Positions 6,666-61,768 of a stretch of 64,000 nucleotides of DNA are shown one piece after another. The stretch is from Candidatus Vogelbacteria bacterium. Its GTDB lineage: Bacteria > Patescibacteriota > Minisyncoccia > Phycocordibacterales > XYD1-FULL-46-19. Within the stretch, counting starts at the first letter, position 1, and every line of letters starts with the position of its first letter. The translations under genes and the position numbers were made by a program. Location: contig CAIRHC010000007.1 in the NCBI GenBank assembly GCA_903878275.1, forward strand, positions 78,482 through 142,481, written 5' to 3'. Below the pieces are notes generated by a model that made no database searches, was not told where the DNA came from, and was given only the letters and a program-made list of their open reading frames with translations.

Positions 6666-7937
6666 ATGTTGACAGCATTTTTTAATAAACTCAATTTAAT
6701 CTTAAGCGACAAAAGTTTAAGAGGCAGAATCCTGTTTATTGTTGGTGCTTTGGCTGTTTTTCGTTTTTGTGCCGCTATTCCAATTCCTGGTGTTAATGTT
6801 TTACAGCTTGAGAAATTTTTAAGCAACAACCAGTTTTTTGGTTTGTTGAATATTTTGTCTGGTGGTGGTTTGTCCAATCTTTCAATTATGATGCTTGGTG
6901 TCGGGCCGTTTATTACGGCGTCGATTATTATGCAACTTTTGACGATGGTTTCGCCGAAATTGAAGCAACTTTACCACGAAGAAGGACAAATGGGGCGACG
7001 TAAAATTGCCCAATACTCTCGTTTGCTGACTGTTCCGCTTGCTTTTTTGCAAGGTCTCGGTTACTTGGTCTTGCTCGAAAAACAAGGTATTTTGATGAAT
7101 CTAACTAGTTTTGAAAAATTAATAAACATTATCGTCATCGTCGCTGGCTCACTTTTGATTATGTGGATTGGTGAATTGATTACCGAATACGGTATTGGCA
7201 ACGGTGTCTCGATGATTATCTTCTCTGGTATCGTGTCTCGTTTGCCGTCGGCGATGTCTGAACTCGCCGTGACTTTTGAACCATCCCAAGCCCCAATGCT
7301 CCTTGGTTTTGGCGTGCTTATTGTGCTGGTCTTGGCGGGCATTGTTTTTATGACCGAAGCCGAGCGACCAATTCCGATTACTTATGCCAAGCGGGTGCGG
7401 GGGATGAAAGTTTATGGTGGCACTTCCACTTATTTACCGATTCGCGTCAATAATGCTGGTGTGATGCCGATTATCTTTGCTTTGTCGATTATTTTGTTCC
7501 CGCAAATGATTGCCAATTTTTTGGGTGCTTATGGTGGTGCCACCAAAACAGTTGCTGATTTTCTCAATGCCTTTTTTGCCAATCAATGGTTTTACGGCGC
7601 CTCTTATTTCTTGTTGGTCTTTGTCTTTACCTATTTTTATTCCGCGATTACTTTCGATCCAGAATCAATGGCGGTCAATTTGCAGAAAAATGGTGCTTTT
7701 ATCCCTGGTGTTCGTCCTGGTAAACCAACCGAAGAATATGTGACTAAGATTTTGACTCGTTTGACTTTGGTCGGCGCACTTTTCTTGGGTACGGTGGCGT
7801 TGTTGCCGATTATCCTCAAAGGTTTGACCGGTATTGCTACTCTGGCGATTGGCGGAACTAGTATTTTGATCGTCGTCTCGGTGGCGATTGAACTAGTGAA
7901 GCAGATCAATGCGCAGATTTCGATGAGAGAATATTAG
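6666..7937 (+). CDS. secY: preprotein translocase subunit SecY
   Basis: 423 aa multi-TM; position after rplO. Confidence 0.92.
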   Translation: MLTAFFNKLNLILSDKSLRGRILFIVGALAVFRFCAAIPIPGVNVLQLEKFLSNNQFFGLLNILSGGGLSNLSIMMLGVGPFITASIIMQLLTMVSPKLKQLYHEEGQMGRRKIAQYSRLLTVPLAFLQGLGYLVLLEKQGILMNLTSFEKLINIIVIVAGSLLIMWIGELITEYGIGNGVSMIIFSGIVSRLPSAMSELAVTFEPSQAPMLLGFGVLIVLVLAGIVFMTEAERPIPITYAKRVRGMKVYGGTSTYLPIRVNNAGVMPIIFALSIILFPQMIANFLGAYGGATKTVADFLNAFFANQWFYGASYFLLVFVFTYFYSAITFDPESMAVNLQKNGAFIPGVRPGKPTEEYVTKILTRLTLVGALFLGTVALLPIILKGLTGIATLAIGGTSILIVVSVAIELVKQINAQISMREY

Positions 7938-7947
7938 AGAGGGTAGG

Positions 7948-8112
7948 CATTTGAGTGTAACTTTTAAAACCACAGAAAAAGCCCCAGCGGGGCTTTTTCC
8001 TTTGCTTCAAGTCGCCATTTCGCCCTCGTTCGCCAAAGGCGAACAAAAACAAAGGGCGAAAACCATGCTGGCGATAATTCCGCAGAGGTTTTTAAAAGTT
8101 ACACTCAAATGC
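7948..8112. repeat. 25-bp inverted repeat (gcatttgagtgtaacttttaaaacc / ggtttttaaaagttacactcaaatgc) enclosing ~115 bp with nested hairpins
   Basis: arms read directly; the overlapping ORF 7951..8244 is probably spurious. Confidence 0.6.
7976..7998 (+). terminator. rho-independent terminator aaaaagccccagcggggcttttt after secY
   Basis: GC stem + T run. Confidence 0.6.
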
Positions 8113-8140
8113 CTTGTGGTGTGGGAAGGTTGGAGGCTAA

Positions 8141-8168
8141 AACCGCCCGAGGCAAGCCTCGGGCGGTT
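8141..8168. repeat. REP-like palindrome family 1 (aaccgcccgaggc-aa-gcctcgggcggtt)
   Basis: the same or near-identical palindrome recurs at 8879, 9763, 12655 and 19758; related ACCGCCC stems at 3361, 28789 and 39371. Confidence 0.6.
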
Positions 8169-8202
8169 TAGTTATCCACCGTTATCTTTCCAAAAATCTA
8201 GC

Positions 8203-8229
8203 GGGGGGGGGGGCTTTATTTGTTATACT
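8203..8229 (+). promoter_or_regulatory. poly-G(11) tract + extended -10 (TGtTATACT) promoter module
   Basis: G11 at 8203-8213; TATACT at 8224-8229; the module is conserved upstream of 9915 and 19947. Confidence 0.5.
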
Positions 8230-8294
8230 AAAATTAATTATTAGTTTTTTAACAATTAATCAGGTTGGTCTTTGAAAAGGCTGACCAAAAAATA

Positions 8295-8849
8295 ATGAAA
8301 AAATATCTTTTTGTCTCATTAGTTGTCGCTTCTTTTGTAATTTTGCCGGTGTTTGCCTCGGCACAAGCAGTTTCGTATCATCCAGCGGATACGAATAATA
8401 ATTATAAAATAGAGAAGGATGAATTGGTCTCATACGTTATCTCGTTTCTTTCGCCGACCGGTACCCTTGTTGGGGTGACTTTGTCTCAACTTGCACGAGT
8501 TGTTACTTTCTACAATGCTGGAGGTTATAAAGTTTATAATGGTACTAGCGATGGTTTTGCTCCTAGCCCAGCTTTTCACCCGGCTGATACCAATAAAAAC
8601 TATAAAATAGAATTATCCGAGCTGAATGCTTATCGAGAACTTTATAATCAAAAAATGATAACTTTAACTCAAGTATCAAGGGCAATTACTTTTTATAATG
8701 CCGGAGCTTATAAAGTTGATCCTAGTTCATCTGATGGGTTTGCTCCTCGACGAGTTGTGGTTAGCGAATCAGCCAATAGTGCTCAATTGGCAAGTATTGT
8801 GACCGCGCTGTCTTCTCTGTTGAATGAAATTAAGCAACTTGCAAAATAA
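8295..8849 (+). CDS. secreted protein with two ~65-aa tandem repeats (dockerin/EF-hand-like D.N.N.KIE..EL loops) and a conserved C-terminal amphipathic motif
   Basis: MKKYL signal peptide; repeats YHPADTNNNYKIEKDEL / FHPADTNKNYKIELSEL. Confidence 0.6.
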   Translation: MKKYLFVSLVVASFVILPVFASAQAVSYHPADTNNNYKIEKDELVSYVISFLSPTGTLVGVTLSQLARVVTFYNAGGYKVYNGTSDGFAPSPAFHPADTNKNYKIELSELNAYRELYNQKMITLTQVSRAITFYNAGAYKVDPSSSDGFAPRRVVVSESANSAQLASIVTALSSLLNEIKQLAK

Positions 8850-8878
8850 AACTAAATAAGATTAAGAAATGGAAAAAT

Positions 8879-8906
8879 AACCGCCCGAGGCAAGCCTCGG
8901 GCGGTT
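8879..8906. repeat. REP-like palindrome family 1 copy (likely terminator)
   Basis: aaccgcccgaggcaagcctcgggcggtt. Confidence 0.6.
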
Positions 8907-8940
8907 TGTGTTGCCAGAGCATTTTTTGTATACTAGAAAT

Positions 8941-9345
8941 ATGGAGATAACTCACCAACATAAGCTTGAAGTTGCTAAAATTGCCAAAAAATTCCAATTA
9001 AATCTAGTTGTTATTTTTGGTTCTTTTGCTAATGGAAAACAGCGAGAAGATAGCGATTTAGATATTGCCGTTTTGGGCGACAAAGAAATTTCTTTTAATG
9101 AGCAAATCGGCTTAATAAATGAATTATCTTTAATTTTTAATAAAAACATTGACTTGTCGGTGCTAAACCGAGCGAATCCACTACTACTTTTTCAAGTTAG
9201 CCAGAATTCGGTTATTATTTATGGCAGTCACGAAGAATTTTTGAAGTTTAAACTTTACGCTTTCAATGTCTACAATGATTATGCTCCCTATTTTGCGATG
9301 GAAAATAATTTGAATAAAAAAATAATCAATACTTATGCCAATTGA
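8941..9345 (+). CDS. minimal nucleotidyltransferase (MNT; MntA-like antitoxin)
   Basis: GSFANGK....DSDLD NTase motif. Confidence 0.75.
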   Translation: MEITHQHKLEVAKIAKKFQLNLVVIFGSFANGKQREDSDLDIAVLGDKEISFNEQIGLINELSLIFNKNIDLSVLNRANPLLLFQVSQNSVIIYGSHEEFLKFKLYAFNVYNDYAPYFAMENNLNKKIINTYAN

Positions 9346-9757
9346 TAAAAAACTTATAAGTCGAAAAATTACTTTGATCAACGGTGATTTAAAGAGTTTA
9401 AAAGGCTTAAACAAACTTTCACTCAAAATTTATTTAAGCAACGCGGAGTACGAAACACTGGCGGAAAGATATTTAGAAAGAATAATCGGGCGAATGATTG
9501 ATATTAATTATCATATTTTGTCAGAAAAAGAAAATGAAATGCCCACTGATTTTTACAGTTCTTTTGTTCTGTTGGGCAGAAAAAAGTATTTACCGATAAA
9601 ACTAGCTGAAACGATGGCTGGTTCGGCTGGGTTGCGGAATCGTTTGGCTCACGAGTATGATGAAATTGATGCTAAAAAAGTTTTCGGGGCGATCGATTCT
9701 TGCTTAAAAGATGTACCGAAATACCTAAAGAATATTGTTGCATCGCTGGGTTTGTAA
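9335..9757 (+). CDS. HEPN domain protein (DUF86/HepT-like toxin)
   Basis: RNRLAHEYDEID = HEPN R-x4-6-H motif; overlaps the MNT gene by 11 nt. Confidence 0.7.
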   Translation: MPIDKKLISRKITLINGDLKSLKGLNKLSLKIYLSNAEYETLAERYLERIIGRMIDINYHILSEKENEMPTDFYSSFVLLGRKKYLPIKLAETMAGSAGLRNRLAHEYDEIDAKKVFGAIDSCLKDVPKYLKNIVASLGL

Positions 9758-9762
9758 AAAAT

Positions 9763-9790
9763 AACCGCCCGAGGCTTGCCTCGGGCGGTT
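9763..9790. repeat. REP-like palindrome family 1 copy
   Basis: aaccgcccgaggcttgcctcgggcggtt. Confidence 0.6.
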
Positions 9791-9824
9791 TAGTTATCCA
9801 CCATTATTTCCCTAAAATCTATCA

Positions 9825-9851
9825 GGGGGGGGGGGCTTTATCTGATATACT
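9825..9851 (+). promoter_or_regulatory. poly-G(11) + TGaTATACT promoter module
   Basis: G11 at 9825-9835, then ctttatctgatatact. Confidence 0.5.
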
Positions 9852-9914
9852 GAATAAAATATTCGGCATTTTTAAGTTTTTAAAATTTATTATTAATAAC
9901 TAATTACAAAAATA

Positions 9915-12629
9915 ATGAAAAAATATCTTTTAGGTTTTTTACTCGTCGCTTCTTTGGTGGTGCTTCCGTCGGTGTCTCAAGCTGCTGAAGATTTAACGGT
10001 TACTTTGTATGGTTCGGGTTTGACGAAGGGTGTGGTCGGTGAGCCAGTGGTCCAAACCAGTTTTTCGGTCATGGTCACGCCAAACAACGGTGATGTTTAT
10101 TTGTATACGGGTGGGATATTAGGCATTCAACTTATTCAAGATGGAGGTCGCCCAATGCCCGATAATTGTACTTATAGCCAGAGCCTTACGGGGACATTGC
10201 CTATAGTTACGCATCCTCTAGGAAGCCAATATTATAAACTTGCCAGAGGCACCACTGCTCGTTTCAATGCATCTGTTTATTGTAAGATCAGTCAAATGCA
10301 TCCTGGTACTTATTATGGAAAACTTAGTCACGTAACATATAGCAAGACTGATCCTACGACAACAAACAGTTGGTATGATCAAAATATAGAAAACATCAGG
10401 ACACCAGCATCTATAAATATGTATGTTCTCGGCGAGACTGGTCCGTGGATTAGTTTGGCTGTGGCTAAGGCTGTTCAAGGTGGTTATGAGATTGTTTTAA
10501 CAGGAGAAAGATTGGGTCAGGTAAGAAGCGTGTTCCTGAACAACAAAACATACACTCCCTCAGCCAAACCTGGTGACTCTGTAAGTTTTTTTGCCAGTAT
10601 TGCTGATTTACCTGCCGGTAATTATCCTAGTTATGCTAATTTCTCTGGTGGTAAAAGTAATAATTTTTATCTGATGGTTGGAGGTAGTTCGATTGGAATT
10701 ATTTCACCCAATGGAGGGGAAAATTTAAATGAAGGTTTCGATTATCCTATAAGATGGACAAATTATAATATCACCTCGCCAACCGTTAACGTGGGAATTG
10801 AAAGATATGATAGTTCTGGGGCGTCTCAAGGTTCAACAAATATTATCACTGTCCCAACTACACAAAACAATTCCTATCTTTGGAGGGTTAATCCAAATTT
10901 AGCTTGGCAGGGAACACCGGTGAATCCTTCTTCTGGCCCTTTTAAGTATAAAATTTATGTTAATACTCCAGTCGGTGTTTCCCCAGTTGTTTCTGATTAT
11001 AGTGATAATTATTTTACTATAGCTGCATTAAATCCGACAGCCAAAGTCGCTGTCACCTCCCCAAAAGGAGGAGAGTCATTAGCTCAAGGCTCTACTTATA
11101 ATATTACGTGGAATGCTGCTAGTACTGTCACTAAAGTTGCCATCAGTCTTCTTAAGGGTGATATCGTTCGCTCTACTTCTATTATCAATCCGGTATCAGC
11201 TTCGGCGGGAACTTATGCTTGGAAAGTTGGAAACACCGCAGCGGGAATGATGGAGCCTGGGACTGATTATCGAATCAAAGTTTATGGTGTGACCGATGCC
11301 GGTGTCCCTATTGCGGATGCTAACAGTACCAGTAATTATTTCAGTATTGTGGTATCAGCACCAGCGACCGCTCCCACCATTAATAGTATTACTCCAAACA
11401 CCGCACCGATCGGAACTGCTTCTCGGGTAATCATCCGAGGCTTAAATTTCAGTATCGGTGATACTGTGTATCGTTTTGACGGAGAAATTCAAAGTCAACC
11501 ATTCTGTACTATCGGCGTTAACGCCAATGGGAACTACGACTGTCTTCCTGCTAAACTACCCGCTGGTGCGTACAAGCTTGCGGTGGTAAACTCTCGTGGG
11601 ACGAGCAATAAAGTGGATTTTACTTTTACTCCAGCTACGGCTATACCCACTCTTTCTGTGTCGCTAGATCCTTCTAACCCAACCAGACAAAACATCGGTG
11701 CGGGATCTATTGATCAAGTTTTTGTTAGAATTAAAGTTACCGCCGGATCGATGGATGTTAATAATCTTCAAGGAATCCAACTTGGTTCAGATTCTGCTAA
11801 TGCCAATGATTTTATAACCAACATAAAAGTTTTTGATGGGGCAAATCAGTTGGGTGGAACCATCTCTGGGTTGGACAATAATGGAAAAATTTTTTATAAA
11901 TGGACTTATCCTACTGGCGTAATGATTCCAGCTGGTACCTCTAAGATTCTGACCATTGTCGCCGAAGTGAAATCGACAGCTTCTAGCAATAGCAATTTTC
12001 GTTTAGGTATAACTGGCTGGAATTTTGTTTTTCCGGGGACTGCTGTGGAGCCGTTCGGGACACCGATATATGGTAATTATATGACGATAACGGCTTTGAC
12101 AGATCAGCCGACAATCACCGCAGTAGCAATGGCTTTACCAAATTGTTCTCTTGGTGCGATCAACTGTACTTGGCAGGCGGGGACAGATGGATATTATCTT
12201 TGGGGTTACCTTAATCCTAATACTCCGACCGGTAATACCGTCTCGGTTAGTCTTTGTGCCCCAGACGGAATAACCTGTACGATAGCAAAAGATGCTTCAC
12301 TTAAGGATCTCAACAAAGTACCGTCAAAAACTGGAACCGGATTAGGTAACCTGAATTCTGATAAGGCACCGCTTGGTCGTGGTGTTTTAACCAACCCAGA
12401 TCTGGTGGGAGGGAAGAATCCTGTTATCGTCAATAATCAGTCAACCTTAAAAATCTGCCCAACCAATGCCGACGGTTCGCCTGTGACTAGTGGTATTTGC
12501 AAGGTTAGTCCGGTTTTTACCATTACTCCGCCAGCTACCGCTAGTAATTCTCTGGTGAGTCGACAGTTGGCAAGTATTATTACAGTTTTGTCGGATTTAT
12601 TGGCGAAGATTCGGGGATTGGCTTGGTAA
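9915..12629 (+). CDS. large secreted multi-domain surface protein (Ig-like SPNGGE..W..ITW domains, IPT/TIG-like module)
   Basis: 904 aa, signal peptide MKKYLLGFLLVASLVVLPSVSQA; shares a ~260-nt module with the 19947 gene. Confidence 0.7.
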   Translation: MKKYLLGFLLVASLVVLPSVSQAAEDLTVTLYGSGLTKGVVGEPVVQTSFSVMVTPNNGDVYLYTGGILGIQLIQDGGRPMPDNCTYSQSLTGTLPIVTHPLGSQYYKLARGTTARFNASVYCKISQMHPGTYYGKLSHVTYSKTDPTTTNSWYDQNIENIRTPASINMYVLGETGPWISLAVAKAVQGGYEIVLTGERLGQVRSVFLNNKTYTPSAKPGDSVSFFASIADLPAGNYPSYANFSGGKSNNFYLMVGGSSIGIISPNGGENLNEGFDYPIRWTNYNITSPTVNVGIERYDSSGASQGSTNIITVPTTQNNSYLWRVNPNLAWQGTPVNPSSGPFKYKIYVNTPVGVSPVVSDYSDNYFTIAALNPTAKVAVTSPKGGESLAQGSTYNITWNAASTVTKVAISLLKGDIVRSTSIINPVSASAGTYAWKVGNTAAGMMEPGTDYRIKVYGVTDAGVPIADANSTSNYFSIVVSAPATAPTINSITPNTAPIGTASRVIIRGLNFSIGDTVYRFDGEIQSQPFCTIGVNANGNYDCLPAKLPAGAYKLAVVNSRGTSNKVDFTFTPATAIPTLSVSLDPSNPTRQNIGAGSIDQVFVRIKVTAGSMDVNNLQGIQLGSDSANANDFITNIKVFDGANQLGGTISGLDNNGKIFYKWTYPTGVMIPAGTSKILTIVAEVKSTASSNSNFRLGITGWNFVFPGTAVEPFGTPIYGNYMTITALTDQPTITAVAMALPNCSLGAINCTWQAGTDGYYLWGYLNPNTPTGNTVSVSLCAPDGITCTIAKDASLKDLNKVPSKTGTGLGNLNSDKAPLGRGVLTNPDLVGGKNPVIVNNQSTLKICPTNADGSPVTSGICKVSPVFTITPPATASNSLVSRQLASIITVLSDLLAKIRGLAW

Positions 12630-12654
12630 GAAAAATATAGATTAAGAAACGGGA

Positions 12655-12686
12655 AAACCCCGCCGAGGCAAGCCTCGGCGGGGTTT
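12655..12686. repeat. REP-like palindrome family 1 variant / terminator
   Basis: aaaaccccgccgaggcaagcctcggcggggtttt. Confidence 0.6.
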
Positions 12687-12720
12687 TGCTTTTTGGTTAT
12701 GTTGGCGTTATGATTAGGAA

Positions 12721-17800: not shown

Positions 17801-17883
17801 AGCTAACTAAATTTTACCTGTTGGTGGCGGTTGTGATATACTTAAACAAGTTTTTATTATCAATTATTAATTAATTTAAATAA

Positions 17884-19713
17884 ATGAAAAAATATCTCGT
17901 AGTTTTAATACTTGTCGGACTAATCATCTCGACTCCTTTGGCAACCCAAGCTTTTAGTGGAGGGGATCTCTCTTCGCTTATTACTAAAATAGAAAATCTT
18001 ATTGTTCAGTTGAAGCAAGTGCAACTGGCAGCGGTTTTTAGTAGAAACCGGGTAGTCAAAAAAGCCCCGACACCGACACCTACACCAGCCACGGGTACTT
18101 ATTATGTCGATTGTGCCAGTACTGCCAACGATAATAATGCTGGTACTAGTGCAACAAAGCCTTGGCATACCATCGGCCGTGCTTCTTGTATGAGTGATAA
18201 TCCGCAGTGTGGCTCTTTTAAACCTGGCGATACTATTTTGTTTAAACGGGGTTGTACCTGGACTGGCGAGCAATTAACCATCAACACGTCTGGCACTGCT
18301 GGTAAGCCAATTACTATCGCTGACTACGGCACTGGTAATTTGCCGATTATACAGGGCAGTGTCTCTGCTCCAGTTGGTGTTGGTAACGTAAGAGATATGA
18401 TTAATGTAAACGGCAAGAGCTATCTGACATTTCAAAATCTAGAAATAAGATATGCTGAAAATCCGGTGGTTGTAAATAATTCTAGCAATATTGTTTTAAA
18501 TAATCTTAATATTCATGACAATATCGGCTACGGTGCCATTCTTTTAACCGCTGATAGTCAGAGTACAACAAATAATACCGTAAGTAATACTACAATATAC
18601 AATACCAAAGCCAGTACCGAATCAGGACAGATTGGCGAAAATGGCGACCCCAATAGTCGTGGTCATGGAATTTTTATGTTTTCTAATTCAAGTCAGTCAT
18701 TGGTAAATAATAACATTTTTACCGGCAATACTATTTATAATAATGGTGAGTCTGGTATCGACATGATTTTGGGATCAAATAATCGCTTTAGTCAAAATAA
18801 AATTTATAACAATGGCAGTTCCGGCATTAGTTTGGTAAGTGTTAACGGTGAATCTAATGGTAATATTGTTGAGAACAATCTTGCTTACAATAATGGTCAA
18901 ACAACCGACGACGTTGCCGGTATCGATTTGCATCGTATCGGTAGTAATAATATTGTAAGGTATAATGCGGTTTATAATACAGTTGATGCTTTAATAGCGC
19001 CGACAATCCCAGCTCGTCCATGGAATAATGGTACAAAATACGGCAACGTTGGCATTAGATTTGATAGTAATACTGACCAGTCAGTACCGGTGATTGCTGC
19101 CACTGGTAATCAAGTTTATTACAATCTAATCGTTGGCGGCACTTATAATTTTATGAATATTCGCAATACCGGTCTATCATTCTTCAACAATATTCTACAT
19201 AACAGCTCATCGGATAATGTCCGAATTCATAACAGTAAAGATGTTCTTGATTTTGTTTTTAAGAATAATATTCTTACTCGTAATAGTAATAACGAAAACG
19301 TTTATTTTGTTCGCATTCAAGATGCTAAAAATGTTACTGATCCTGCTAAGTTCAACAATAATATGTATTATTCTTCGGTCGCTGGTGGCAAGTTCTGCGC
19401 GCTTACAGATAAAGATGCTTGGTGCTTAAATCCGGTTACGACGCTGGCTGATTGGCAAAGTCAAAGTGGCTTTGATAAAACAAATTCGTTAATAGCTAAT
19501 CCTCAATTTTCAGCAACTGCTCCGACAAGTGTTTCGGCAACTAATATTGAGAGCGCAGTCAGTAGCTTTAAACTAAACGCTACTTCACCAGCCTTGGATA
19601 AGGGTGCCACAGATGTGACTGCTGGGTTATCGTTAGCTCAAGATTATTTTAGTCAAAGCGTGCCGTACGGCAGTAGCTTACCAGATCTTGGCTTTAGCGA
19701 AATTGCTAAATAA
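17884..19713 (+). CDS. secreted right-handed beta-helix (pectate-lyase-fold) protein
   Basis: signal peptide; PTPTPTP linker; repeated NN..IxNN and IYNNG.SGI PbH1-like turns. Confidence 0.7.
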   Translation: MKKYLVVLILVGLIISTPLATQAFSGGDLSSLITKIENLIVQLKQVQLAAVFSRNRVVKKAPTPTPTPATGTYYVDCASTANDNNAGTSATKPWHTIGRASCMSDNPQCGSFKPGDTILFKRGCTWTGEQLTINTSGTAGKPITIADYGTGNLPIIQGSVSAPVGVGNVRDMINVNGKSYLTFQNLEIRYAENPVVVNNSSNIVLNNLNIHDNIGYGAILLTADSQSTTNNTVSNTTIYNTKASTESGQIGENGDPNSRGHGIFMFSNSSQSLVNNNIFTGNTIYNNGESGIDMILGSNNRFSQNKIYNNGSSGISLVSVNGESNGNIVENNLAYNNGQTTDDVAGIDLHRIGSNNIVRYNAVYNTVDALIAPTIPARPWNNGTKYGNVGIRFDSNTDQSVPVIAATGNQVYYNLIVGGTYNFMNIRNTGLSFFNNILHNSSSDNVRIHNSKDVLDFVFKNNILTRNSNNENVYFVRIQDAKNVTDPAKFNNNMYYSSVAGGKFCALTDKDAWCLNPVTTLADWQSQSGFDKTNSLIANPQFSATAPTSVSATNIESAVSSFKLNATSPALDKGATDVTAGLSLAQDYFSQSVPYGSSLPDLGFSEIAK

Positions 19714-19757
19714 TAATATTTAAATTTAGTTAAGATAAATAAAAGATTGTAAGAATA

Positions 19758-19791
19758 AATCCCGCCCGAGGCTAGTCCTCGGGCGGGATTT
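19758..19791. repeat. REP-like palindrome family 1 variant / terminator
   Basis: aaatcccgcccgaggctagtcctcgggcgggattt. Confidence 0.6.
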
Positions 19792-19875
19792 GCGGTGAAG
19801 CTAATTAGAATGGGGATAACCCGTGAGCCGTGCGAACGGAGCAGTCCCCCGAAGTGGGGATAACTAAATTATACT

Positions 19876-19901
19876 GGGGGGGGGGCTTTCTGTGATATAC
19901 T
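19876..19901 (+). promoter_or_regulatory. poly-G(10) + TGaTATACT promoter module
   Basis: G10 at 19876-19885, then ctttctgtgatatact. Confidence 0.5.
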
Positions 19902-19946
19902 TAAACAAGTTTTTATTATCAATTATTAGTTTAATTTATTTTATTT

Positions 19947-21779
19947 ATGAAAAAATATCTCGTAGCCTTGGCACTAGTCGGGCTAATCATCTCGACTCCT
20001 TTGGCAACCCAAGCTTTTAGTGGAGGGGATCTCTCTTCGCTTATTACTAAAATAGAAAACCTTATTACTCAATTAAAACAATTTCAATTGGGTGCGGTCG
20101 GAACTATCACTGGAGAATCAGCGATTTTAAGTGATTTTGTTTTTACTCCATCCTCACCGTTGGCGATCAACACTACTATCACTGGGAAAGTTAAAATTAC
20201 CAACAACGGCACTGTCGCTCTTCCTGGAGCTGGATATGGTTTGAGGGCGACAAATGTGACAGATTCTAAATTTCTATTTTCTGTTTTTGTGCCCACTATT
20301 CAGCCTGGAGCTTCGGTTGTTCTCCAAAATGGTATGACCTTCTCGTTCCCGACAGCTGGCTACAAAGATACTTTGTGGGAATTAATAAAGGTGGGCAGTA
20401 CTGTGCCTTTGACGACGACTCATCAATATCTCGTGGCGGGGGAAAGTGCCGGTCTTCTTTTTGATTCTTTCTCGCTGGCTTCTCCTGTTGCTCCAAATAC
20501 CAATGTCACCGCGAGTATCAAAGTGGTCAGTAATGGTACCGCTTTATCTGGCTATCAGCTCGTCGGAACGAGTGACACTGGTTTAGTTATCCCAACTATT
20601 ACTGATGTTTCTGTCCCCTCGGCTAGCCCGGCTGGTATTCAAATTAAAACTTTTACCACCCCACCATTTAATTCTGGTACATCCGGAAACTCGGTCATTA
20701 CTTGGAAATTAATTAAAGGCACTACGGTTTTGGGAAATGCGGTGACGGGGACTTTGATGGTGGGTCAAGCAACTCCTTCTATTGCTGTAATTTCCCCAAA
20801 TGGAGGAGAAAATTGGAAAGTGGGTGAAACACATAATATTACTTGGAAGACTAAAGACCTTCCGTCGTCAGATATAATTAATATTAATTTGTTACAGAAG
20901 AATAATGCAATGTTGTTTGTGGCCAATGCTATTAATTCCGGTTCTTATTCTTGGACGATCCCTGTTGAAATGCATGGTTTCAATTTAAATGAGGACGATA
21001 ATTATAAAATACAGCTTCTCGATAATAAGGCGCAACCTTCTTATTTTTCTGACTTGAGCGATACTTATTTTAGTATTTTGGAATCACCTACCACTCCCAC
21101 CGTCAATAGTATTACTCCAAACACCGCACCGATCGGAACTACTTCTCGAATAATAATCAGAGGTTTAAATTTCAGCATCGGTAGCACCATCTATACTTTT
21201 AATGGAGAGACGAAGGACAAACTGTTCTGTACTATCAGCGTCAACGCCAATGGGAACTATGATTGTCCTCTTCCTGCTACTTTTTCCGCTGGTGCATACA
21301 AACTTGCGGTGGTAAACTCTCGTGGGACGAGCAATAAGGTAGATTTTACGTTTACTTCTATTCCTGTTATTACTAATTTAACTGTGGCGTCTACCTCAGC
21401 TATTTTAGGTCAAGGTATTGGTAGTCCGGTCGATCGTTATCCTGTCACTTTTTCTTTTACTCTGGTTAATTCAGGCGATATTCCTTTGTATTTGTCGAAT
21501 AATCCTTCAATTGCATTTGCAACAGTGACATCTCCCGTAAATTCTCCATCTAGTGTTTCTTCTTTTCTTGCGTCTCTTTTACCGGGGGATTCACCTGGTG
21601 CATATGTTATACCGGCGAACGGACAGAGAAGATTCGTAGCTTCTGGACTGATTATGAGTTCTCTTCAAGGAGCAGGGTTACAAATTGTGAGTATATTTTA
21701 CGGTACTTCAGCCAGTGATTTGAGAGCCCTGAACATAGATGTTTCTCGTAAAGGTTTGGGTCAAATGGTGCTTAATTAG
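19947..21779 (+). CDS. secreted surface protein (paralogue of the 17884 N-terminus; Ig-like and IPT-like modules)
   Basis: first ~45 aa near-identical to the 17884 gene; IPT module ~85% nt identical to 11383-11640. Confidence 0.7.
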   Translation: MKKYLVALALVGLIISTPLATQAFSGGDLSSLITKIENLITQLKQFQLGAVGTITGESAILSDFVFTPSSPLAINTTITGKVKITNNGTVALPGAGYGLRATNVTDSKFLFSVFVPTIQPGASVVLQNGMTFSFPTAGYKDTLWELIKVGSTVPLTTTHQYLVAGESAGLLFDSFSLASPVAPNTNVTASIKVVSNGTALSGYQLVGTSDTGLVIPTITDVSVPSASPAGIQIKTFTTPPFNSGTSGNSVITWKLIKGTTVLGNAVTGTLMVGQATPSIAVISPNGGENWKVGETHNITWKTKDLPSSDIININLLQKNNAMLFVANAINSGSYSWTIPVEMHGFNLNEDDNYKIQLLDNKAQPSYFSDLSDTYFSILESPTTPTVNSITPNTAPIGTTSRIIIRGLNFSIGSTIYTFNGETKDKLFCTISVNANGNYDCPLPATFSAGAYKLAVVNSRGTSNKVDFTFTSIPVITNLTVASTSAILGQGIGSPVDRYPVTFSFTLVNSGDIPLYLSNNPSIAFATVTSPVNSPSSVSSFLASLLPGDSPGAYVIPANGQRRFVASGLIMSSLQGAGLQIVSIFYGTSASDLRALNIDVSRKGLGQMVLN

Positions 21780-21841
21780 GAGTGAGGTCGAACCTCACCT
21801 AGGGGATGTCGTTTGTGTTGTAATGTTTTATCTAAAAAATT

Positions 21842-22063
21842 ATGACTACTATCTCGGTACCGTTAAATGCTAAATTAGAAAAAGCTATTAACCATTTGAT
21901 TGAGTCTGGTTATGGCTCTAATAAAATCGAAGTTATTCATCGAGCTGTTATTAGCGCCTCAGAAGAAGAGGCTATCGGAATAGTTCTAAGAGCTAAAAAA
22001 GAGATATCTCTGGGGAGGGGCATAAAAGGTGGTTTAAAAGAATTGGTTAAAAAGTTTAAATAA
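21842..22063 (+). CDS. ribbon-helix-helix (CopG/ParD-like) small protein
   Basis: TISVPL beta-strand followed by two helices. Confidence 0.45.
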   Translation: MTTISVPLNAKLEKAINHLIESGYGSNKIEVIHRAVISASEEEAIGIVLRAKKEISLGRGIKGGLKELVKKFK

Positions 22064-22097
22064 CATTCTAACTCACCGAGAGGTGAATGATAAAACA

Positions 22098-22131
22098 AAA
22101 AAACGGAGAAGTTAAACTTCTCCGTTTTTTT
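22098..22131. terminator. bidirectional terminator aaaaaacggagaagttaaacttctccgttttttt
   Basis: hairpin between convergent genes. Confidence 0.65.
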
Positions 22132-22142
22132 TGTTTTTAAAT

Positions 22143-39799: not shown

Positions 39800-40003
39800 T
39801 TGTTGGGCAGGGATTTACCCTAAAGGGTATGAACTTCTCATCTCCGGCCTTCCGAGCAGAAGCCCAAAATTTGATAAAGAATTATCAAATTTTAAATTTT
39901 GCGGAGAGGCAGGGATTTACCCTAAAGGGTATAAACTTCTCATCTCCAGCCTTCCGTGCAGAAATTTAAAATCCGATACAAAAGTATCAAATTTTAAATT
40001 TTG
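39800..40003. repeat. two ~100-bp tandem direct repeats, each beginning with a copy of the tRNA-Ser 3' end (ttttgcggagaggcagggatt)
   Basis: read directly; the overlapping ORF 39786..40049 is a translation artefact. Confidence 0.6.
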
Positions 40004-40092
40004 CGGAGAGGCAGGGATTCGAACCCTGGAACCGATTTTACTCGGTTAACACATTAGCAGTGTGCCCCTTTCGGCCACTCAGGCACCTCTCC
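40004..40092 (-). tRNA. tRNA-Ser (anticodon GCU), class II long variable arm
   Basis: acceptor ggagagg/cctctcc, T-arm cagggttcgaatccctg, anticodon loop ctgctaa. Confidence 0.7.
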
Positions 40093-51369: not shown

Positions 51370-51621
51370 AATAGCGGGGAATTATCCACCGTTTACTCTT
51401 AAACCTCCTAGGCATTGCAATCTCTCGGTGCTATAATTAAAAAATTAAAAACAACATTATTATTTAATAATCAATTATTTCCGGAAAATTTTGCCAAGCA
51501 AAATTTTCCGGTCAACAAATAAGCTTCCCCGAGGTCGAGTCGTTTCTCGGAGGTCGAACCTTAAATCCCCAAAAAGGTTTGACCTCGGATAATTCGACCT
51601 CGGGGAAACAAAAACATTTCT

Positions 51622-52671: not shown

Positions 52672-53547
52672 AGCTGGAGGAGGCTTCGCCTCCTCTCAAA
52701 AACAAGGTGAAACAAGGTGAGGCAAAAACAAGGGGAGGTTGAAACAAGGGGAGGTTGAAACAAGGGGAGGTTGAGCCTCCCCTTTGGCGTTGGTTGTGTT
52801 ATAATATAATCAATGTCTCGTAATATTGAATTAGCGATTGATGAATATTATCACATCTTTAATCATGGCAACGGTGACCGACTAATTTTTATTGACGAAA
52901 AAGATAAAGAGCGATTTGTTAAACTACTCTTTTTAGCTAATGGTTGTAACTCTTTTGATTTTGAAGATCTTTCTTCTGGTCAAGAATTCTCTTTTGATCG
53001 TGGTGAGACACTCGTCGCCATTGGCACGTGGTGTTTAATGGATAATCATTATCATCTATTAATTAAAGAAACCACCGATGGTGGAATTAGTCAGTTTATG
53101 CATCGTCTAGCAACTAGCTATACAATGTATTTCAATCGTCGTCATAGAAAAAGGGGAAGTTTGTTTGAGGGACGGTTTCGAGCAAAACACTTAGGTCAGG
53201 ATGAATATTTAAGACATATCTTTGCTTACACCCATCTCAATCCCGTGAAAATGATTGAGCCAAAATGGAAAGAGGTTGGGTTGAAGAATTTGCCGACAGT
53301 CACTAAATTTTTAAAAGAGTATAGATTTTCTAGCTATCTTGATTATCTCGGCGTTGAGCGAAAAGAAAATAAAATTCTTGATAGAGGAGCTTTTCCGCAA
53401 TACTTTTCAAACCCGGAAGAGATCGAGGTTGAAATGATGGACTGGCTAGATTTCGGTAATTTTTATTAGGGTTAATTTTGGGGTGGGGGTCATCAATATT
53501 ATAACACAAATGATACCCCTAGGGGAGGCTCAACCTCCCGACGGGCA
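52672..53547 (+). mobile_element. IS200/RAYT-like element: HUH Y1 transposase gene flanked by inverted hairpin termini (ggggaggttgagcctcccc ... ttgtgttataatat)
   Basis: left end 52765-52806 and right end 53489-53541 are reverse complements of each other; stuttered partial repeats (aacaaggggaggttga x3) at the left end. Confidence 0.65.
52813..53469 (+). CDS. HUH-superfamily Y1 transposase (IS200-like / REP-associated tyrosine transposase-like)
   Basis: NHYHLL (HxH) and YTHLNPVK (Tyr + NPVK) motifs. Confidence 0.7.
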   Translation: MSRNIELAIDEYYHIFNHGNGDRLIFIDEKDKERFVKLLFLANGCNSFDFEDLSSGQEFSFDRGETLVAIGTWCLMDNHYHLLIKETTDGGISQFMHRLATSYTMYFNRRHRKRGSLFEGRFRAKHLGQDEYLRHIFAYTHLNPVKMIEPKWKEVGLKNLPTVTKFLKEYRFSSYLDYLGVERKENKILDRGAFPQYFSNPEEIEVEMMDWLDFGNFY

Positions 53548-61306: not shown

Positions 61307-61530
61307 AAGAAAAAGGCAAGGTTCAAAAAGGCAAGGTTCAACCTTACCTCTGGGTACCATTTGTGTTGTAATATTTTTAAGCTTAACGGGTATAAAAAAA
61401 GGCAAGGTTCAACCTTACCTCTGGGTACCATTTGTGTTGTAATATTTAAAACTGTTTCGAAGGTAGGAAAAAGGCAAGGTTCAACCTTACCTCTGGGTAC
61501 CATTTGTGTTGTAATATTTTTAAGCTTAAC
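61307..61530. repeat. tandem array of three ~52-bp units (aaaaaggcaaggttcaaccttacctctgggtaccatttgtgttgtaatattt), period ~77 bp
   Basis: three identical copies read directly; each is a hairpin plus a TTGTGTTGTAAT tail like the RAYT element termini. Confidence 0.7.
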
Positions 61531-61768
61531 GGGTATAAAAAATCTTTTTCAATTTGTCATCGCTAAAACATCTCTCCAGTGAACGTAAAATAGATTTTAG
61601 CGTTCCTCGATCAAGCTCTTCGTGCAGGGGAATAGTTATGAAATAAGCCACTTTACCGACTTTCATTACTAATCTGGCGTGGCTACCTTTTTGTCTAATT
61701 TTCAAAAAACCTTCGGCGAGAAGAATTTGCAATAGGTTTTTACCAGAAATTCTGCGAAGTTTAGGCAT
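61526..61768 (-). CDS. hicA: HicA-family mRNA interferase toxin
   Basis: MPKLRRISGK.L..IL...GF...RQKGSHARL. Confidence 0.8.
   Translation of the reverse strand: MPKLRRISGKNLLQILLAEGFLKIRQKGSHARLVMKVGKVAYFITIPLHEELDRGTLKSILRSLERCFSDDKLKKIFYTR

Follow-up and report, generated by a model that had tools for sequence, protein, structure and literature searches.

Can a run of G residues in a promoter serve as a genetic switch in a bacterium of the candidate phyla radiation (CPR)? The question is raised by a 64 kb stretch of contig CAIRHC010000007.1 (hereafter the window; 40.7% G+C), which derives from a metagenome-assembled genome. An earlier reading, made without database searches (the sequence-only reading), had described three copies of a promoter module. 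Each contained a tract of 10–11 G ahead of a MKKYL signal-peptide gene. Changes in tract length were proposed to switch these genes on and off in a CPR bacterium. The assignment of the organism was right; the best named matches of its SecY are to Candidatus Paceibacterota, now Minisyncoccota, a CPR phylum. With moderate confidence, we consider slippage-driven phase or volume variation the best explanation for the tracts. Their length and excess, their position in predicted promoters, the secreted products, the relatives and an apparently locked copy support the proposed switch. Copies 1–3 have no −35 element, and the mechanism is less clear-cut than had been proposed.

Runs of at least nine G residues occur at only three loci in the window, all on the + strand (Table 1). 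They are two G11 tracts and one G10 tract, confirming the lengths and positions first reported. Overlapping G9 matches number eight, against 0.26 expected, and this count was reached in none of 100 dinucleotide-preserving shuffles of the window. All other G or C runs in the 64 kb have a length of six or less. The three tracts are uninterrupted, at least about eight residues long and above background. The order on the 3′ side of each is CTTT(A/C)T(T/C/G)TG(T/A), then TATACT. The distance between the tract end and TATACT is exactly 10 nt in copies 1–3. With the hexamer set at −12 to −7, the tracts span about −33 to −23. All three lie within the core promoter, as predicted from consensus. A further 65, 63 and 45 nt separate the end of TATACT from the ATG in copies 1, 2 and 3, respectively. 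As had been claimed, the tracts stand ahead of the three MKKYL signal-peptide genes at 8295, 9915 and 19947. They are on the coding strand, 61–81 nt before the ATG. The flanks have diverged (75–87% identity, with a different upstream part in copy 3), yet unbroken tracts of 10–11 have been kept.

The genes behind the tracts encode surface or secreted products, as predicted from signal peptides and domains. The signal peptides are classical (MKKYL...AQA, SQA or TQA; A-x-A sites). The 610-aa protein of copy 3 has Kre9_KNH and TIG Ig-like domains, and its Ig-like block is 49% identical to that of the 904-aa protein of copy 2. A fourth, 609-aa protein lies behind an interrupted tract and is a right-handed beta-helix; it is 90% identical to the 610-aa protein over the first 51 residues. 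The 184-aa protein of copy 1 is related to 250-aa and 272-aa proteins encoded at locus L028 of a relative. Among 5.8 billion proteins, the 184-aa sequence matched only itself. A search with the 610-aa protein returned itself and distant Ig-domain matches, with no close homologues among 5.8 billion sequences. Hence, no orthologous promoters were obtained by homologue search and the relatives came from SecY-anchored synteny. A PDB sequence search with the tract-controlled proteins gave nothing informative. Exact look-up of window proteins in a contig index identified no other assembly of the strain, and the cluster look-up gave no accession.

What does the tract replace in these promoters? At 15–19 bp from the −10 box of copies 1–3, the best hexamer matches at 2/6 positions. 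No usable −35 was found there, and the 16–18 bp spacer typical of Neisseria porA is absent from these copies. Upstream of the tract is an A-rich stretch, at about −44 to −40 in copy 1. In copies 1–3 the tract takes the place of the −35 region in what is predicted to be a −35-less extended −10 promoter. The tracts had been placed in a −35/−10 spacer. They do lie ahead of TGnTATACT, but the spacer layout itself is confined to the relatives and copy 4. Small ORFs drawn over the tracts (7951–8244 and 9700–9903) were rejected as spurious; they overlap hairpins and the HepT 3′ end and have no equivalent in copy 3. On the minus strand at 19868–19896 is a sigma-70-like site, ATCACA-17-TATAAT (10/12 positions), the spacer of which is the C10 complement of tract 3. 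An antisense or divergent transcript that depends on the tract might start from this site. As a general explanation the site was rejected, being present in copy 3 only.

Is the same layout used elsewhere? By synteny, ~130 kb of this backbone region was compared in relatives, counted without redundancy. It holds two G or C runs of at least eight and no others, a G8 and a G9. These belong to two other species of the clade, and each is a tract in the promoter of a related MKKY gene. The G8 tract (L028/L029; SecY 72%) reads cctTTGTTAtt-G8-tgtTGaTATAAT, with a 266-aa MKKY gene 60 nt downstream. Like window copies 3 and 4, it occupies the LDcluster4|rplT slot. The G9 tract (L030/L031; SecY 73%) is in the rplB|rpsS slot, where TTATCCACC-19 nt-G9-TGTTATTAT precedes a 392-aa MKKY Kre9_KNH-like gene. 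The tract-linked MKKY proteins of both loci are related to the window proteins. The sequence analysed for the clade, ~195 kb, has five G or C runs of at least eight; every one is at this same promoter position before a secreted-protein gene. A metagenome pattern scan identified three relevant loci (L011, L014 and L013) with a G-tract, CTTT and an extended −10 box before exported proteins. L011 and L014, from one metagenome (Ga0172371), have G8-CTTTATTTGGTATAGT before diverged solute-binding proteins. At L013, G10-CTTTCTTTGTTATACT precedes the gene of a 682-aa protein with a signal peptide. A scan of representative genomes for G6+CTTTNTNTGNTATACT gave nine chance matches with G6–7, mostly terminator halves beside promoters, in unrelated phyla.

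The promoters of the relatives differ in how the tract is placed. In L028, L030, L011 and window copy 4 the tract is inside a spacer of ordinary length, at most 1 bp off the optimum of 17 bp; this is the porA-type layout. Tract lengths across loci and species are 8, 9, 10, 11 and 11, and the distance to the −10 box is 3, 6 or 10 nt. Other MKKY genes of the relatives have a hairpin and a TGnTATAAT promoter with no tract at all. Hence, the tract is an optional add-on and not a required promoter element.

These loci bear on two other accounts of the tracts. The runs might be artefacts of sequencing or assembly, such as a chimeric join or the poly-G that dark cycles are known to produce in two-colour Illumina chemistry. 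The L014 metagenome contig does end inside its tract. However, both flanks are conserved between copies 1 and 2 and partly in copy 3, the tracts are internal to a 150-kb contig, and 10–11 nt is far below assembly k-mers. The same layout also occurs in independent JGI, Logan and ENA assemblies. Given the conserved flanks, the contig-internal position and the independent assemblies, an artefact is excluded in practice. Alternatively, the tract might be transcribed. Transcription would start from a −10-like box just upstream, and the G run at the RNA 5′ end would serve as an RNA element or be transcribed reiteratively, as is known for G runs at B. subtilis pyrG. Copies 2 (TAAAAT) and 3 (TATACT) do have −10-like hexamers 1–6 nt upstream of the tract, but copy 1 has AAAAAT only, and the upstream boxes all lack a TG extension. 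By comparison, TGnTATACT on the downstream side is close to consensus and kept in 4/4 promoters, and the L028 and L030 tracts sit between a −35-like and a −10 box. We consider a transcribed tract very improbable.

The gene at 17884 (copy 4) has the same TGATATACT box as copies 2 and 3 but GGTGGCGG where the tract would be. When right-aligned on the −10 box, tt-GGTGGCGG-ttgTGa-TATACT of copy 4 matches tt-GGGGGGGG-tgtTGa-TATAAT of L028 base for base, at the same syntenic site. Because of this alignment with the G8 of L028, we read copy 4 as an interrupted tract. Between the shared AAATT(A/T)TAC and TGATATACT, copy 3 is longer than copy 4 by 2 nt. The sequence-only reading had described this paralogue as having the same −10 region and a degenerate, locked tract, and the alignment supports that description. 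Copy 4 is as expected for a tract that has decayed or become locked.

How might such tracts act? Each of the three genes would have its own TGnTATACT promoter, with a run of 10–11 G at the place of the −35 element and the upstream half of the spacer. A G10–11 run is an intrinsic hotspot for slippage in replication, and 10–11 is within the hypermutable range. Slippage would add or remove G residues, and the altered tract length would shift and rotate upstream contacts relative to the −10 box, changing both distance and helical phase. The contacts may be a weak −35-like hexamer, an A-rich UP-like stretch, or the TTATCCACC/GTTATC box, possibly bound by an activator. The outcome would be a heritable and reversible change in promoter strength, independent for each gene; that is, a contingency switch of the phase or “volume” type. 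We infer slippage at a useful frequency, the transcription start, an effect of length on expression, and the ON and OFF lengths.

Several observations weigh against slippage-driven switching. Copies 1–3 have no −35-like hexamer at 15–19 bp, and a 1-bp change might matter little in a −35-independent extended −10 promoter. Were a tract-adjacent −35 needed, all three genes would be 3–4 steps from ON. Given the missing −35, a graded (“volume”) effect, or none, is as plausible as a clean on/off switch. The transcription start is itself predicted from consensus only, and the scanned window proteins included neither MutS nor MutL. The tract lengths of 11, 11 and 10 are very alike, and pairs and triplets of assemblies from the relatives show equal lengths. 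Those assemblies (L028/L029, L030/L031/L032 and L033/L034) are 99.995–100% identical and probably come from the same populations or data. Hence, the equal lengths are uninformative, the assemblies being practically identical.

The same similarity in length is what a fixed promoter element would show. The G run would then be functionally constrained, as a rigid GC spacer or a regulator site, and its length would change only over evolutionary time, with no role in stochastic switching. Consistent with this, tract, CTTT and extended −10 box are kept among the paralogues and recur in relatives, with G always on the coding strand. The window copies have no −35, so that a spacing logic is not obvious, and equal lengths in the available assemblies of relatives fit as well. 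However, neither length (8–11) nor distance to the −10 box is conserved, most related genes have no tract and one copy is interrupted. A G10–11 run would also be prone to slippage whatever its role. We judge a fixed element unlikely, though deserving of serious weight. In a separate observation, the sole difference between L028 and L029 in 21 kb is T4 versus T3 in rplD, ~195 nt from the locus start. As a result, L4 is called in two parts in the JGI assembly; the difference is a true homopolymer variant or else an error of assembly.

Are there precedents for slippage-driven switching at this position? Chen et al. are said to have described, in 2010, a Bordetella fim homopolymer that covers the −35 region. 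Bordetella fim2, fim3, fimX and fimN have a “fim box” and a C-stretch before paralogous fimbrial genes, with lengths of 7–22 (PMC1891110). Changes in tract length alter transcription, and certain lineages have interrupted tracts (C6TC3, C9TC8), B. parapertussis among them (PMC1891110). As in Bordetella, paralogous surface-protein genes of the window have their own promoters with a long G/C homopolymer upstream of the −10 box. Length likewise differs between paralogues and species, and an interrupted tract is present. Unlike in Bordetella, the upstream box of the window is found in 2/3 copies only, and a BvgA-type activator is hypothetical. The host belongs to the CPR/Minisyncoccota, the genes are not fimbrial and the system is known from sequence alone.

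Two neisserial promoters are closer in layout. The opc poly-C reportedly lies directly upstream of the −10 box in a promoter with no recognisable −35, according to work attributed to Sarkari et al. in 1994. In culture, the meningococcal opc tract changed from 11C to 12C or 14C in 5/17 clones (PMC6389960). Window copies 1–3 resemble opc in having a homopolymer upstream of the −10 box of a −35-less promoter; the opc tract is 11–14 nt and its length tunes transcription stepwise. In contrast, opc is a single gene of a proteobacterial pathogen with proven switching, and here three genes are involved and the evidence is of sequence. At porA, van der Ende et al. are said to have found in 1995 that G9–G11 in the spacer sets the −35/−10 distance. 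L028 (TTGTTA-16-TATAAT, G8) and L030 (TTGTTT-16-TATTAT, G9) resemble porA of Neisseria meningitidis, whereas the three promoters of the window have no −35 hexamer at a workable distance.

Is the tract part of a larger module? Three copies of one module had been described, comprising a palindrome, an upstream box, the tract and the −10 box. For tract and core promoter this stands. The palindrome AACCGCCCGAGG-n4-CCTCGGGCGGTT has five copies (8141, 8879, 9763, 12654 and 19760), each directly 3′ of a stop codon. The copy at 8879 precedes a toxin-antitoxin operon that has no tract. Because of this placement, the palindrome is best read as a terminator-like hairpin of the preceding gene and not as part of the promoter. 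A hairpin followed by an extended −10 box is the usual intergenic layout in this genome and its relatives. The tttagttatccacc... box is found in copies 1 and 2 only, which are 87% identical over ~95 nt from hairpin to −10 box; both have a TTATCCACC(G/A)TTAT box upstream of the tract. In copy 3, hairpin and tract are separated by 87 nt of different sequence, in which TTATCCCCA occurs twice in inverted orientation (TTATCC motifs inverted only). The similarity of copy 3 to copies 1 and 2 is limited to the tract and core promoter. Copies 3 and 4 have a 5′ untranslated region in common (93% over 46 nt). Among relatives, the TTATCCACC box was seen in L030. On these alignments, the promoters are mosaics, like their proteins. 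The “module” is best read as a terminator that belongs to the upstream gene, with a mosaic promoter behind it.

Searches with the upstream box were unproductive. A role of TTATCCACC as a DnaA box was rejected; 23 one-mismatch matches, against 16.8 expected, are not significant. A regulon search with the 16-nt box gave only two 3-mismatch matches, which is chance level, and none in the loci of relatives. A 3-mismatch match to the box of promoters 1 and 2, ATTATCCACCGTTTAC, lies in window 51381–51437, 48 nt before an extended −10 box TGCTATAAT (51429). The equivalent distance in promoter 1 is 50 nt, and the match alone is at chance level. Rfam, tandem-repeat and tRNA scans gave nothing bearing on the promoter module. 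As separate observations, the nucleotidyltransferase (MNT-like)/HepT toxin-antitoxin pair (8941–9757) sits between both G11 promoters and, like the surface-protein genes, is bracketed by this hairpin. The loop of the 9763 hairpin (CTTG) is the reverse complement of the 8141 and 8879 loops (CAAG).

Such mosaics are also what might be expected if the tracts were a neutral by-product. Slippage would have expanded a G-rich spacer in weakly constrained promoter cassettes, recently duplicated or converted, with no regulatory use; the genes behind them would be accessory and fast-evolving. The genes are insertions specific to the lineage, their 5′ regions are mosaic and recombine, and promoter cassettes appear to be copied between diverged genes at L011 and L014. 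There, the G8 tract, extended −10 box, 5′ untranslated region and first 14 nt of the coding sequence (L011, 899–975; L014, reverse strand) are 100% identical, and the rest of the coding sequence is strongly diverged. The shared cassette looks like promoter-cassette copying or gene conversion. However, unbroken G10–11 tracts would decay fast without selection, and the placement of five out of five long runs at one promoter position is hard to square with neutrality. We regard a neutral origin as improbable, less likely than a fixed element.

Table 1 Features of the window and tract layouts in relatives (promoters predicted from consensus)
Feature	Position	Strand	Detail
Terminator-like GC hairpin, 12-bp stem	8141..8168	+	Loop CAAG; closes secY 3′ region
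Upstream box, promoter 1	8169..8202	+	TAGTTATCCACCGTTATCTTTCCAAAAATCTAGC, with GTTATC-n4-GTTATC direct repeat, TTATCCACC motif and A-tract
G11 homopolymer tract, promoter 1	8203..8213	+	About −33 to −23
Extended −10 box, promoter 1	8221..8229	+	TGTTATACT
184-aa secreted protein	8295..8849	+	MKKYL signal peptide, two EF-hand-like repeats, C-terminal QLASIVTALSSLL helix
Terminator-like hairpin	9763..9790	+	After HepT toxin gene; loop CTTG
Upstream box, promoter 2	9791..9824	+	TAGTTATCCACCATTATTTCCCTAAAATCTATCA
G11 homopolymer tract, promoter 2	9825..9835	+	
Extended −10 box, promoter 2	9843..9851	+	TGATATACT
904-aa secreted protein	9915..12629	+	Signal peptide, Kre9_KNH and TIG Ig-like domains
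Interrupted tract, promoter 4 (window copy 4)	17823..17830	+	GGTGGCGG; aligns with G8 of L028; −35-like TTTACC, spacer 18 bp to −10
Extended −10 box, promoter 4	17834..17842	+	TGATATACT; before 609-aa beta-helix secreted protein (17884–19713)
Terminator-like hairpin	19760..19788	+	After gene 17884–19713; variant stem
G10 homopolymer tract, promoter 3	19876..19885	+	
Extended −10 box, promoter 3	19893..19901	+	TGATATACT
610-aa secreted protein	19947..21779	+	
Window copies 1–3 (G11, G11, G10)			No usable −35; best upstream hexamers at 21–27 bp
L028 tract (G8)			−35-like TTGTTA, spacer 16 bp (TTGTTA-16 bp-TGATATAAT; −10 TATAAT)
L030 tract (G9)			−35-like TTGTTT, spacer 16 bp (TTGTTT-16 bp-TGTTATTAT; −10 TATTAT)
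L011 tract (G8)			−35-like TTTGCA, spacer 18 bp

Where do the tract-controlled genes lie in the genome? The backbone consists of secY (6666–7937), adk (12721), map (13332), a beta-CASP gene and LDcluster4 (17195), with rplT/infC on the other strand, and belongs to the ribosomal-protein operon region. In the closest relative found (L010; SecY 87%) the secY–adk gap is 382 bp, with no insertion. Ten assemblies of the 70%-SecY lineage likewise lack an insertion, and G or C runs of at least eight are absent from them. In relatives, other secreted proteins fill the rplB|rpsS, rplE|metallophosphoesterase, secY|adk and LDcluster4|rplT slots. Since L010 and the ten assemblies have no insertion and other relatives fill the slots differently, both gene clusters of the window are lineage-specific insertions at recurrent sites of the ribosomal-protein/secY–adk backbone.

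The slot pattern was seen at window 7938–12720 and 17801–22140, and at L028, L030, L033 and L037. Slot genes encode MKKY signal peptides and Ig-like, beta-helix or PG_binding domains. Their proteins share an amphipathic “QLASxIxxLxxLLxxI” helix, placed after the signal peptide or C-terminally. Directly 3′ of the secY stop is a 170-nt element (7945–8114) that contains hairpins and is bounded by a terminal inverted repeat of 25 nt without mismatch. Its folding energy is −89 kcal/mol (z = −10.3 versus shuffles), and Rfam has no match to it. The element is kept in L010 (5322–5493), with an apparent compensatory change from GAGTG/CACTC to GGGTG/CACCC in the arms. It could be a structured RNA or 3′ untranslated region element, or a miniature inverted-repeat transposable element. 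Three tandem repeats were also noted. One, at 39806–40019 (102 nt x 2.1), overlaps a tRNA-Ser region. A second, at 52708–52774 (16 nt x 4.2; TGAAACAAGGGGAGGT), is upstream of an extended −10 box. In the third, at 61325–61542 (71 nt x 3.1), each unit is a hairpin plus the promoter-like TGTTGTAATAT.

Would a slippage switch be new to these organisms? Full-text literature searches (CPR, Patescibacteria, Parcubacteria and Saccharibacteria, combined with phase variation, homopolymers and simple sequence repeats (SSRs)) found no report of such a switch. This agrees with the earlier statement that homopolymer phase variation has rarely been described in the CPR. The nearest CPR case is a hypervariable gene with in-frame 9-mer repeats in a Gracilibacterium (PMC6851277). 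MutS and MutL are reported to be absent from Saccharibacteria and present in other CPR groups (PMC8406219). The type of mechanism is textbook and not mechanistically new; the searches gave no earlier case in this phylum. Tentatively, and with less assurance than we have in slippage at the window tracts, we propose that a Paceibacterota clade may use promoter poly-G contingency switches for a mosaic family of MKKY surface proteins at recurrent backbone sites.

What would such switches mean? CPR bacteria are mostly uncultured, have tiny genomes and are thought to be attached to other cells. Surface variation in these organisms is poorly understood, and diversity-generating retroelements are the main mechanism discussed. 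The slippage reading is open to existing metagenome reads, at the three window loci and at the G8 (SRR5468431) and G9 (SRR21025700) tracts of the relatives. Tracts of fixed length would also need explaining, as an unusual element conserved in promoters that have no −35. If the switch is confirmed, this would be the first SSR bet-hedging system in ultra-small, probably host-attached bacteria. Such genes could then be sought in other CPR genomes by a simple signature in the sequence. Reduced genomes would be well served by a slippage switch, which requires no genes of its own. Lineages would vary their surface, for host attachment or for phage or host evasion, without recombinases or retroelements, and the MKKY family would be the variable face of the cell.

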